From: an uncultured Thermoprotei archaeon
Lineage (GTDB): Archaea; Thermoproteota; Thermoprotei; QMSL01; B3-G16
Length of the DNA stretch: 64,000 nt
Assembly (NCBI GenBank): GCA_964517845.1
Contig: CAZFCQ010000003.1
Coordinates: 35,978 to 99,977 of the forward strand
Direction of reading: 5' to 3'
The position numbers and the translations under genes were made by a program. Positions 9,841 to 50,799 of this stretch are shown here, piece after piece; the first letter of the stretch is position 1, and each line of letters starts with the position of its first letter. Under the pieces are notes generated by a model. The model made no database searches. It worked only from the letters and a program-made list of their open reading frames with translations, and was not told where the DNA came from.

Positions 9841-10353
9841 ATGAGCGCTACACTCAGAATATACAGGACACTTAAGAATTTTAAGAAGCTAACATATGAT
9901 GTACTCCCTCTCTTCCTAATGCTTCCCTTACTTATCTTTCTCATTCCTTATAATCTCTTTCCAAATCCACCGGAAGGAGAATACTCTATATTTTCATTAA
10001 ATGTAATTGTACATGTAGTATTCCTAGTAATATCCTTCTTCTTATCGTTAATTGTTCCTCGTTATGATAGATGGATAGTTAGGCCTATAGTTTCTAGTTC
10101 TATAAGATTTCGTGAGCTTGCTCTTTATTGGTTAATAGAGCCACTAGCAGCGATAGGAATATGCTTTCTAGGATTTATAACCTCTCTTATATTCAAGTAC
10201 TGGTCCCCTATGATACCTTATGTGTTTATAAGCTATACATTGTTACTAATAACAATACTAAGACTTAAGTTTCATTTTGAAATAATTGATCAGAGACTGA
10301 CTAAATTAGGAGGTTATCTCGTTGAGAGACGAGATAGAAAAATATCTAAATGA
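9841..10353 (+). CDS. Hypothetical integral membrane protein
   Basis: Multiple hydrophobic segments are present, and no family is recognised. Confidence 0.4.
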   Translation: MSATLRIYRTLKNFKKLTYDVLPLFLMLPLLIFLIPYNLFPNPPEGEYSIFSLNVIVHVVFLVISFFLSLIVPRYDRWIVRPIVSSSIRFRELALYWLIEPLAAIGICFLGFITSLIFKYWSPMIPYVFISYTLLLITILRLKFHFEIIDQRLTKLGGYLVERRDRKISK

Positions 10354-18977: not shown

Positions 18978-20038
18978 GGAAATTTAAAGCTGCTATCATC
19001 AGTTTTGCCCATATTCATGCATACTCTTATGCCCGCGTACTTAAAGGGCTGGATAATGTAGAGTTTGTGGCTATATGGGACGATAGAAGAGAAAGAGGGG
19101 AGCTTGCTAAAAACCGTTATGCTATCAATAAGTACTACGATGACCTAGATAAGCTTTTCAAAGAGAATAAAGATCTAGACTTTGTTATAGTAACTTCAGA
19201 AAACGCTAAACATTATGAACATGTAAAGATCGCCCTTGAGAATGATATTCATGTACTTTGTGAAAAACCTTTAACCGTTGACTTGAAACAAGCAGACGAA
19301 TTAGTAGGCCTTGCTAGAAGAAAAGGATTAAAACTAGGCACTTGCTTCGTTATGAGATTCCATACTTCTACTATCCAGGCTTATAATATCCTCCGTGAGG
19401 AGAGAATAGGTATTCCTATGTCTATTACTACTACTAATCATGGTACATGTCCATATAAAGAAGCTCACTGGTTCGTAGAGCCAGAGTTATCTTATGGAGC
19501 TCGTATAAGACTAAGGGAAGGTGATTCTAGATTTAGAGGAGGATGTATTACAGATCATACTGTACATTGTGCTGATCTTTTAAGGTGGCTTTTAGGAAGT
19601 GAAGTAAGTGAGATATACGCAGAAGTCGGAGGGAATATCAGAAGTGAACTAGAAGTCGAAGATAATGCTCTTGTAATCTTAAAATTCCGAAACGGCGTAC
19701 AGGCATCTATAGACTGCAGTTGGAGTAGACCTGAGGGCGTTTATCCAACATGGGGAGACGTTAATCTCTACATAGTAGGAACTAACGGTGCTCTTGATAT
19801 AGAAGCTTTTAATCAAAACATATGGTTGGCCACATGGGACACTCAAAGATTAGTTTTCAATTACTGGGGTACTGATGTAGACTGGAACATGATTGTACAA
19901 TTCATAGAAGCTATTGAACGAGATGAGGAACCTCGAGCTAATGGTTGGGATGGCCGTCAAGCTACTGAAATAATGCTAGCAGCTTACGAATCAGTCTCTA
20001 GAAGGAAGCCAATACGATTGCCTTTAACCCATACTTGA
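18974..20038 (+). CDS. Gfo/Idh/MocA family oxidoreductase (paralog)
   Basis: The product has the same fold (...HVLCEKPL...) and is translationally coupled to the upstream paralog by a 4-nt overlap. Confidence 0.8.
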   Translation: MRKFKAAIISFAHIHAYSYARVLKGLDNVEFVAIWDDRRERGELAKNRYAINKYYDDLDKLFKENKDLDFVIVTSENAKHYEHVKIALENDIHVLCEKPLTVDLKQADELVGLARRKGLKLGTCFVMRFHTSTIQAYNILREERIGIPMSITTTNHGTCPYKEAHWFVEPELSYGARIRLREGDSRFRGGCITDHTVHCADLLRWLLGSEVSEIYAEVGGNIRSELEVEDNALVILKFRNGVQASIDCSWSRPEGVYPTWGDVNLYIVGTNGALDIEAFNQNIWLATWDTQRLVFNYWGTDVDWNMIVQFIEAIERDEEPRANGWDGRQATEIMLAAYESVSRRKPIRLPLTHT

Positions 20039-20257
20039 GATTAAACTACTTTATTTTTATAATAACCAAATATTATAAAGAGAATTCATAAGCCAAATAC
20101 ATCCTGCATTATTATAATCACTTTACCATCTCTCGCTATACTCTTTAACTTTAACATCCATAGTGCTCCGTCGATTTCTTATAATCTTATCCTACGTTAA
20201 ATTTAAAAGGGTTTGAAGTCTATTTAAACCAACAGAGCAATGTTATATCACCTTGAA

Positions 20258-20312
20258 TTATGATGAATAGGGACTATCTGAGCTAATGATGATCATGCGG
20301 ATGTGCTGACCT
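20258..20312 (+). ncRNA. Candidate C/D box sRNA (2'-O-methylation guide)
   Basis: C box AUGAUGA at 20260..20266. D' box CUGA at 20278..20281. C' box AUGAUGA at 20286..20292. D box CUGA at 20306..20309. Guide spacers are 11 nt and 13 nt. It lies in a convergent intergenic region. Confidence 0.55.
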
Positions 20313-20341
20313 TTGTCATAACCTAATGAAATTTTCAGCAT

Positions 20342-21547
20342 TTAGAATAGAAATCTCCTCTTTATCTTCCCATAACTGGTAATGCACTCTCTAATAAGTT
20401 CCATCTTGTCAATACTTGTTAAACTATAAGAATACACCATAATTCCTTTTCTCCATACTTTAAGTGCTCTTTCTACTTCTTTCTGAATTTCATTACTTCC
20501 CATACTCTTTAAGGCTACTACTCCAGGGTATCCTTCACTTTTTAATAAACGGCGCGCTCTTAAGCATTGTTTGCTAAACCATCTAATGTCTTTCCCTAAT
20601 ATTTTGTAAAATAGAACAGGTTTCACAAGATCTACTATCCTATCTATTTCCCTATAGTCAATTCCTAGAGCCTTAGATATATCTGGAGGAGGTAGAATAG
20701 TAGATACTCTTACTCCATAGTCATGAGCAATGCTGGTCATATCGTCAAGTAACTCTGTTACTATATCTGTTCTAAAATTAAAGAAATCCTCTATATTACC
20801 GAATTTACCTAACCACTTTAGCTTTTCATAATTCCTAAATGTAAAGGCTTCTTCGAATGGTTCCTCTTTATCTTCCCTATGCAGTATTATTTTTTGTATC
20901 TTTCTCATAACGTGTTCTCTGCTTATCCTACTTAGTACATCACTTAGATTGAGGTTTCTACTCTTAGCTTCTATTCTACAATACTTACAGAAACAGGTTA
21001 TCCTGTTTCTCATAAGTGGTGATATCGGATGCCAGAATTCTCCTAATTCAATTTCCATAATGTCCTCTCTTGTTGCTAAATCTTCTATTAGTCCGAGGAG
21101 ATATCTTCTTACTTCTGGATTTAAAGGACATACCCAGGCTCCACCGTAATTAATGGGCTCTTTCACATTATCTACCATATAATATTTCATATTGTTTAAA
21201 GTCATGTTAAGACAATTAATATGAGCTACTATTTCAAGTCCATAAGAATAAGCTCTGCTAATGACATGTCTTAAGTCGAAGCATAGTAACTCTTTATATC
21301 TCTGAGGTCTAATAGATGTGGCTCTATAGAAATCATGTCGTGGCTCAAAATATAATTTTCCTGCTTCGCTTTCTCGTCCTACACTTTTATTGTCGTATGT
21401 AAGGATTAGATTCATTTTAGTAAAATTCATATTATTAATAAAGACTGATATGGAGTTAGCTCCTAGGAACCCAACAACATCGCTTAATGTTCTCTCAAGT
21501 ACATCTAAACAAAGATGTCGTGGATGCACCCACATACCTATGTACAT
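20342..21547 (-). CDS. Hypothetical protein (401 aa), possibly a glycoside-hydrolase-like TIM-barrel protein
   Basis: This is a long ORF with coding-like composition and a Cys cluster (CFCKYC). No motif is recognised with confidence. Confidence 0.4.
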   Translation of the reverse strand: MYIGMWVHPRHLCLDVLERTLSDVVGFLGANSISVFINNMNFTKMNLILTYDNKSVGRESEAGKLYFEPRHDFYRATSIRPQRYKELLCFDLRHVISRAYSYGLEIVAHINCLNMTLNNMKYYMVDNVKEPINYGGAWVCPLNPEVRRYLLGLIEDLATREDIMEIELGEFWHPISPLMRNRITCFCKYCRIEAKSRNLNLSDVLSRISREHVMRKIQKIILHREDKEEPFEEAFTFRNYEKLKWLGKFGNIEDFFNFRTDIVTELLDDMTSIAHDYGVRVSTILPPPDISKALGIDYREIDRIVDLVKPVLFYKILGKDIRWFSKQCLRARRLLKSEGYPGVVALKSMGSNEIQKEVERALKVWRKGIMVYSYSLTSIDKMELIRECITSYGKIKRRFLF

Positions 21548-50723: not shown

Positions 50724-50799
50724 TGGTAGCCCGGCGGGGATTCGAACCCCGGTCGGCGGGGCCAGAGCCCGCCATGCTTGGCCGCTACACCACCGGGCT
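50724..50799 (-). tRNA. tRNA-Gln (anticodon CUG), 76 nt including a genomically encoded 3' CCA
   Basis: The cloverleaf was derived by hand. The acceptor is AGCCCGG/CCGGGCU. The T-arm is CGGGG-UUCGAAU-CCCCG. The anticodon stem is GCGGG/CCCGC with loop CUCUGGC (U33, CUG, G37). Confidence 0.85.

Follow-up and report, generated by a model that had tools for sequence, protein, structure and literature searches.

A probable dual-guide C/D box sRNA gene in an uncultured hydrothermal Thermoproteota archaeon, with diverged copies in three related lineages

Archaeal C/D box sRNAs, a class reportedly described by Omer et al. in 2000, Gaspin et al. in 2000 and Lui et al. in 2018, often have minimal terminal stems, and the linker between their boxes D′ and C′ (the k-loop spacer) is expected to vary in length. 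Which nucleotide they methylate is given by the N+5 rule: it is the one paired with guide position five, counted upstream from D′ or D. To our knowledge, the proteins L7Ae, Nop5 and fibrillarin are universal in archaea. The sRNAs are rarely annotated in metagenome-assembled archaeal genomes. The class is also described in Dennis et al. 2015 and has been reviewed (PMC7994747), with roughly 50-130 C/D sRNAs per genome in the members of the Thermoproteota studied. C/D sRNAs are expected by the dozen in such genomes, and the element described here is of this type. Among the described families, the dual-guide sRNAs Sac-sR22, Pca-sR122 and Iho-sR422 target helix 97 of the 23S rRNA with a GCGGUUA(C/U) guide (PMC4644070, supplementary file 1).

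The window, by which we mean the whole 64-kb stretch of DNA analyzed (64,000 nucleotides), was searched on both strands with the four-box pattern RTGATGA-N10-14-CTGA-N2-12-TGATGA-N10-14-CTGA. A single match was obtained, and the pattern was absent from all 300 dinucleotide-preserving shuffles. A looser scan for the C/D layout again returned only this site, which spans 50 nt from box C to box D (20260-20309, +; Table 1). The preliminary description had read the box order and spacing as C-11-D′-4-C′-13-D, and that reading proved exact. The element resembles the archaeal class in its RUGAUGA and CUGA boxes, ordered C-D′-C′-D, in its two spacers of ~11-13 nt and total length of about 55-60 nt, and also in its intergenic position beside the 3′ end of a gene, its thermophilic crenarchaeal host and its failure to fold stably by itself. 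The window copy departs from the class in its 13-nt C′-D spacer, the modal length being 12, and in its weak terminal stem, neither difference being categorical. Spacers of 13 nt were also seen in other conserved C/D families of related genomes, and the range of guide spacers given for archaeal C/D sRNAs ends one nucleotide short of this length (PMC7994747).

Table 1. Coordinates of the element and of the sites discussed with it (positions in the window unless a locus is named)
Feature	Coordinates	Strand	Basis and remarks
Oligo-T tract TTTATTTTTA, just past the stop of the upstream ORF	20050-20059	+	Read from sequence; possible terminator
TATA-like octamer TATTTAAA, 31 nt upstream of box C	20221-20228	+	Read from sequence; putative archaeal promoter
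Whole conserved sRNA block, probable transcript of about 55-63 nt	20254-20316	+	Four-lineage profile match
Box C, AUGAUGA (fits the RUGAUGA consensus)	20260-20266	+	Read from sequence
C-D′ spacer, 11 nt, ATAGGGACTAT (RNA: D′ guide AUAGGGACUAU)	20267-20277	+	Read from sequence
Box D′, CUGA	20278-20281	+	Read from sequence
D′-C′ linker (k-loop spacer), 4 nt, GCUA	20282-20285	+	Read from sequence
Box C′, AUGAUGA	20286-20292	+	Read from sequence
C′-D spacer, 13 nt, TCATGCGGATGTG (RNA: D guide UCAUGCGGAUGUG)	20293-20305	+	Read from sequence
Box D, CUGA	20306-20309	+	Read from sequence
Members of the Thermofilaceae/Thermoproteales-like C/D family	L014:9222-9267, L018:5338-5383, L024:4553-4598, L027:5825-5871, L031:14630-14584		

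At the gathering thresholds of Rfam, no C/D family was found in the whole window. The sole match at threshold was a tRNA gene (50727-50799, -; 56.4 bits), and this gene has no complementarity of at least 8 bp to either guide. In the sensitive mode, the element was the only C/D-like match in the window; it gave end-to-end, in-register, sub-threshold matches solely to archaeal C/D families, about a dozen in number, the best family having a whole-window E-value of 0.52. RF01139 (sR2; 23.5 bits against a gathering threshold of 42) and RF00095 (snoPyro_CD; 23.1 bits against 45) both align end to end over 20256-20312 with the boxes in register, but their guides are unrelated to those of the window. 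The element is not a member of sR2 or snoPyro_CD, nor of any Rfam family at threshold. The supplementary tables of Dennis et al. 2015 contain no guides identical to the window's, and a full-text literature search for the guide strings returned only unrelated papers.

The element lies between a 354-aa ORF on the + strand (stop 20036-20038) and a 401-aa ORF on the - strand (stop 20342-20344), which bears out the convergent intergenic position previously assigned to it. No ORF of at least 40 aa overlaps it in the window, and the gene calls of matching public contigs, which cover protein genes only, place no gene there. The upstream ORF encodes a GFO/IDH/MocA oxidoreductase, and the element is found 220 nt downstream of it on the same strand, ending 32 nt from the stop of the convergent ORF. 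The convergent ORF (20345-21547, -) is without a Pfam domain, and a comparison with 5.8 billion proteins returned, besides its own cluster, only two diverged homologue clusters; by these searches, the 401-aa protein is clade-restricted and without assigned function. The 354-aa protein is encoded identically on ENA, JGI and Logan metagenome contigs, with Topo VI and other archaeal genes nearby. From loci around Topo VI-B, the nearest genomes are the 'Thermoprotei archaeon' MAG AUK163 (Pescadero) at 77% identity and MAG B12_G16 (Guaymas) at 67%, followed by Thermofilaceae MAGs at about 63% and Pyrobaculum and Thermoproteus at about 55%. Judged by these comparisons, the host is an uncultured hydrothermal Thermoproteota archaeon.

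Diverged homologues of the element are present in three other lineages, in or near the same gene neighborhood. The copy in locus L006 sits between the same two genes (the 401-aa homologue at 60% identity) and reads GGGCT-ATGATGA-CTAGGGACCGTT-CTGG-CTTAGGGAG-TGATGA-TCAAGCGGTTGTG-CTGA-GCCC; the same element is also present on L009, which is MAG AUK163, and on L209. A more degenerate copy, ATGCTGA-GTGGAGGCCGT-CTGA-...-TGATGA-TGAGCGGTTGTG-CTTA, adjoins a 401-aa homologue of 47% identity in L007 (GCA_964544255.1). The third, in L210 (4206-4155, -), was found via the oxidoreductase (71% identity) and reads ATGATGA-CTAGAGAGGCCC-CTGA-TGA-ATGATGA-ACAGCGGATTTG-CTGA; the same oxidoreductase pair is about 600 nt away and on the opposite strand. 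The copies in L007 and L210 likewise abut the 3′ end of a convergent gene. More distant orthologous loci (L211 and L212, 65-67% identity) are without the element, and none was found within the 180 nt of sequence of L213 (75% identity). A profile built from the four lineages (R1) matches the window block with 55.9 bits (E=2.8e-15), the window being one of its training sequences, and found no family members beyond the four lineages in 1.375 Mb of Thermoproteota loci.

Identities of the window element to its homologues in L006, L007 and L210 are 0.80, 0.69 and 0.77, each above the maximum of 300 shuffles (0.62-0.69), and the 100 nt upstream stay at the shuffle mean (0.58-0.60). The invariant columns of the alignment are those of the four boxes and of a D-guide core, GCGG.U.UG. 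The ATG.TGA of box C and the TGATGA of box C′ are identical in all four lineages. CUGA is the box D′ of every lineage but L006 (CUGG) and the box D of every lineage but L007 (CUUA), and the D′-C′ linker ranges from 3 to about 14 nt. No two of the four lineages have the same D′ guide; its 5′ part, (A/C)UAGGGAC, is common to the window and L006, and its 3′ part has diverged. By this measure of conservation, the element is kept under selection in the four lineages.

The D-guide core GCGGUU, which can pair with the AACCGC of the helix 97 5′ strand, is shared with sR22, sR122 and sR422, and the D guide of L006 has AAGCGGUU in common with Iho-sR422. The D′ guide starts with (A/C)UAGGG(A) here, and Sac-sR22 has A(UUU)UAGGGGA. 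However, relative to box D the core is 3 nt out of register with that family, so that a different nucleotide would be methylated, and the 3′ end of the D guide (GUG) pairs poorly with the GAU/GGU of the helix 97 site. The window copy also has A, not U, at the N+5 position of its D guide. Neither a same-register complement to ...G(G/A)UAACCGC... nor a D′ complement to ...CUCCCC(G/U)A(A/G)A... is present in the guides, and the D′ target segment of sR22 (CCCUCCCCGAAAAG) was matched by the D′ guides in none of the 112 23S loci searched. Kinship with the sR22/sR122/sR422 family is possible.

Under the N+5 rule, the D′ guide would direct methylation of the nucleotide opposite A20273; the corresponding position of the D guide is A20301. 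Complements of the guides were sought in rRNAs of organisms other than the host, namely 112 23S-bearing loci, among them 17 complete operons, which were collected from metagenomes by a crenarchaeal A-loop signature, and also in 39 distinct tRNAs, the window itself, the E. coli rRNA (L008) and the archaeal 23S rRNAs supplied with Dennis et al. 2015. Several recurrent candidates were obtained in 23S rRNA. The D guides of L006 and L007 could pair with helix 97 at (G/A)UAACCGCU, about E. coli 2738-2746. The D′ guide of L007 could form 10 bp with GCGGCCUCUA, just 3′ of the sarcin-ricin loop (about E. coli 2676-2686), and that of L006 could form 11 bp with CGCGGUCUCUGG, the variant of this site in L158; helix 93 is a further candidate for the D′ guide of L006. 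For the D′ guide of the window, the candidate is AGUCCCU(A/G)U in the central loop of the peptidyl-transferase center, about 2060-2068, in Thermoproteales-type rRNAs only, and it is not above chance (P=0.07 with shuffled guides). The 23S regions of these candidate sites are recognized methylation hotspots (PMC7994747).

None of the candidate duplexes in other crenarchaeal 23S rRNAs, 9-11 bp in length, exceeds the shuffled-guide nulls. With shuffled guides, a match in one or more of the 17 operons arises in 48-87% of cases, and the counts for the real guides do not exceed this null (P = 0.07-0.87); for both guides of one sRNA to match within 150 nt, P is at least 0.06 against shuffled guides. 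No tRNA target was found among the 39 distinct tRNAs, and targets inside the window were not above chance. The D guide of the window has no recurrent complement in the 112 23S loci, the 17 full operons, the 39 tRNAs or the window, and it differs from the guides of L006 and L007 in having A, not U, at N+5 and U at position 10, with the result that the helix 97 candidate no longer fits. The most plausible substrates would be in domains V-VI of the 23S rRNA, as hypotheses only, and in the window lineage the D guide may have become an orphan or may pair with a sequence peculiar to that lineage. More generally, 9-bp matches between guides and GC-rich rRNA are no evidence by themselves.

Other pairings were considered and abandoned. 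A guessed pairing of the D guide with 23S helix 91 (CACAUCC...) was dropped after a metagenome scan for GATGTCGGCTCNNCACATCCGCAT found nothing. The D′ guides pair over 9 bp with helix 93 in E. coli (CGGUCCCUAU, 2606-2615), but crenarchaea have CGG(U/A)CUCUAC in helix 93, which weakens the match, and it is not significant. Pairings of the D guide with helix 27 or helix 15 of the 16S rRNA reached only 8-9 bp with 2-3 G.U pairs and were not recurrent at the thresholds used. The assignment of rRNA contigs to the host by flank GC and tetranucleotide signature was uninformative, as it mostly tracks GC; a 23S locus from the same JGI sample (L149) has a Desulfurococcales-like helix 93 and is without guide matches.

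The rRNA loci also gave observations of their own. Thermoproteales-type 23S rRNAs (L093, L101, L105, L106, L130 and others) have U at the equivalent of E. coli A2062 (GAGAAGUCCCU...), and other crenarchaeal 23S rRNAs keep A there (GAGAAGACCCC...). In L132, L137, L146, L183, L198 and four more 23S loci, either helix 93 is shifted 150-250 nt away from the A loop or GAGACAG runs into sequence that is not rRNA, which suggests rRNA introns or insertions. L097 contains two A-loop matches (2152 and 5216), 3 kb apart.

The lack of a recurrent target for the window D guide brings in an alternative, namely that the locus encodes a C/D RNA that, at least in the window lineage, does not guide rRNA or tRNA methylation. 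Its guide or guides would then be orphans, and the RNA might be a chaperone, act on another RNA target, be the product of a drifting gene or be cis-antisense to the 3′ end of the 401-aa mRNA. The changes at the critical N+5 position and at position 10, which take the D guide off the helix 97 site, are in its favor, as are the differences between the D′ guides of all lineages and the fact that orphan guides are common in archaea (PMC7994747). On the other hand, the window copy retains four perfect boxes and all lineages keep the D-guide core, which points to a pairing partner that is conserved too, and the absence of a target rests on rRNA from other organisms only. The antisense variant is consistent with the proximity of the gene to the convergent stop in the window and in the L007 and L210 copies, but the convergent partner is a different gene in L210, which makes a gene-specific antisense role unlikely. 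Overall, we regard a non-guiding C/D RNA as improbable.

An L7Ae-binding k-turn that forms part of a longer RNA, such as the 3′ UTR of the upstream oxidoreductase operon, with a regulatory and not a guiding role, is much harder to sustain. The element does follow that operon on the same strand at the short distance given above, and L7Ae is reported to bind k-turns in mRNAs (PMC5539422). A simple k-turn, however, needs no complete C/D plus C′/D′ dual architecture, and in L210 the element lies on the strand opposite to the oxidoreductase genes. An oligo-T tract follows the upstream stop (Table 1), a possible terminator that would part the sRNA from the upstream operon. A TATA-like octamer is found 26-31 nt 5′ of box C in all four lineages; outside the window, the corresponding A/T octamer stops 26-28 nt short of box C (ATTTTTAA in L006, TTTTTAT in L210 and TAATTAAA in L007). 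Together, the conserved octamer and the oligo-T tract suggest an independent archaeal transcription unit. A scan for bacterial-type promoters and terminators, which is not designed for archaea, found no terminator. We consider the mRNA k-turn very improbable.

None of the RNAs of the window, L006 and L007 has a predicted fold that beats its shuffles (z = -0.04 to 0.43). This is in line with an RNA whose k-turn boxes are bound by proteins and whose guides stay open, and it speaks against a structured riboregulator. In the window, the terminal stem is weak (two mismatches, then A-U, A-U, G.U and U.G), and in L006 it is a clear 6 bp, GGGC(U)/GCCC. In the L006 copy (2108-2178, -), the D′ guide (GACCGUU) is partly complementary to the D guide (AAGCGGUU), over 7 bp including 2 G.U pairs, and a similar partial pairing of the two guides is seen in L007. 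A hairpin was considered from the apparent covariation of D-guide positions 5 and 10 (A/U versus U/A) and was rejected: L210 has A5/A10, so that the covariation is a coincidence, and the fold z is about 0. When CA(W)CCGC(W)UG was searched for as a target pattern, the only match was the antisense strand of the gene itself.

A functionless chance cluster of motifs in AT-rich intergenic DNA, which the shortness of the individual boxes and the weak whole-window E-value of the best Rfam family might suggest, is effectively refuted and has a negligible probability, given the conservation of the element above every shuffle in three other lineages, with flanks that are not so conserved and invariant columns that fall at the boxes, as well as the empty shuffles for the four-box layout; moreover, the homologous loci differ at 20-31% of positions, as opposed to assembly chimeras of one sequence.

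We conclude, with a probability of about 85%, that in this uncultured Thermoproteota archaeon the block 20254-20316 (+) encodes an archaeal C/D box sRNA with two guides. The sRNA belongs to the well-known C/D class, yet to no curated Rfam family. Its motif architecture, non-randomness, conservation in four lineages and lack of a stable own fold are direct observations. Of the preliminary description, the dual-guide sRNA of ~55 nt is well supported by the boxes and their spacing, the conservation in relatives, the TATA-like element and the sub-threshold matches to archaeal C/D families. Its expectation that the targets could be read from the guides was not confirmed, as matches in the 112 crenarchaeal 23S loci and 39 tRNAs were no better than those of shuffled guides.

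The expression of the sRNA, its assembly into an RNP and the methylation that it directs would follow the class by analogy. Transcription would probably start from the gene's own TATA-box promoter, with the octamer listed in Table 1. Boxes C and D would form a k-turn and boxes C′ and D′ a k-loop, both bound by L7Ae, and Nop5 and fibrillarin would then assemble on the L7Ae-bound boxes. Each spacer would base-pair with a substrate RNA, in which fibrillarin would 2′-O-methylate the nucleotide that the N+5 rule singles out.

The loci of relatives also contain other C/D families that are clearly conserved. One distinct conserved family occurs near Topo VI in Thermofilaceae/Thermoproteales-like MAGs, with guides of about AAAGCGCCUU(A/G) and (G)AGAGUACC (Table 1). 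A second is found in Desulfurococcales/Sulfolobales MAGs (L072-L079, about 9880-9930, +), directly upstream of Topo VI-B; its guides are ACGACGGUCUC and UCUUCUCUUCU, and its C′ box deviates to UGAUGU. The third, with GCUGGUGCG / GGCUCGUG, is in the Vulcanisaeta loci L050, L053 and L054.

The only mildly new aspect of the locus is the apparent turnover of guides at a positionally stable gene, seen as D′ guides that change from lineage to lineage and a D-guide N+5 base that flips between A and U. A tentative and rather unlikely explanation is that the guides turn over fast through retargeting among neighboring sites in 23S domains V-VI, or through co-evolution with lineage-specific rRNA; in that case, the D′ guide of the window would direct methylation of the U found in place of A2062 (E. 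coli numbering), at the entrance of the peptidyl-transferase center and exit tunnel in Thermoproteales-type 23S rRNA. The finding changes no concept, and its practical use is in annotation. An uncultured vent clade of Thermoproteota gains one well-supported C/D family, with variants from four lineages, and with it a small natural series in which guide drift can be set against fixed boxes and a fixed genomic position.
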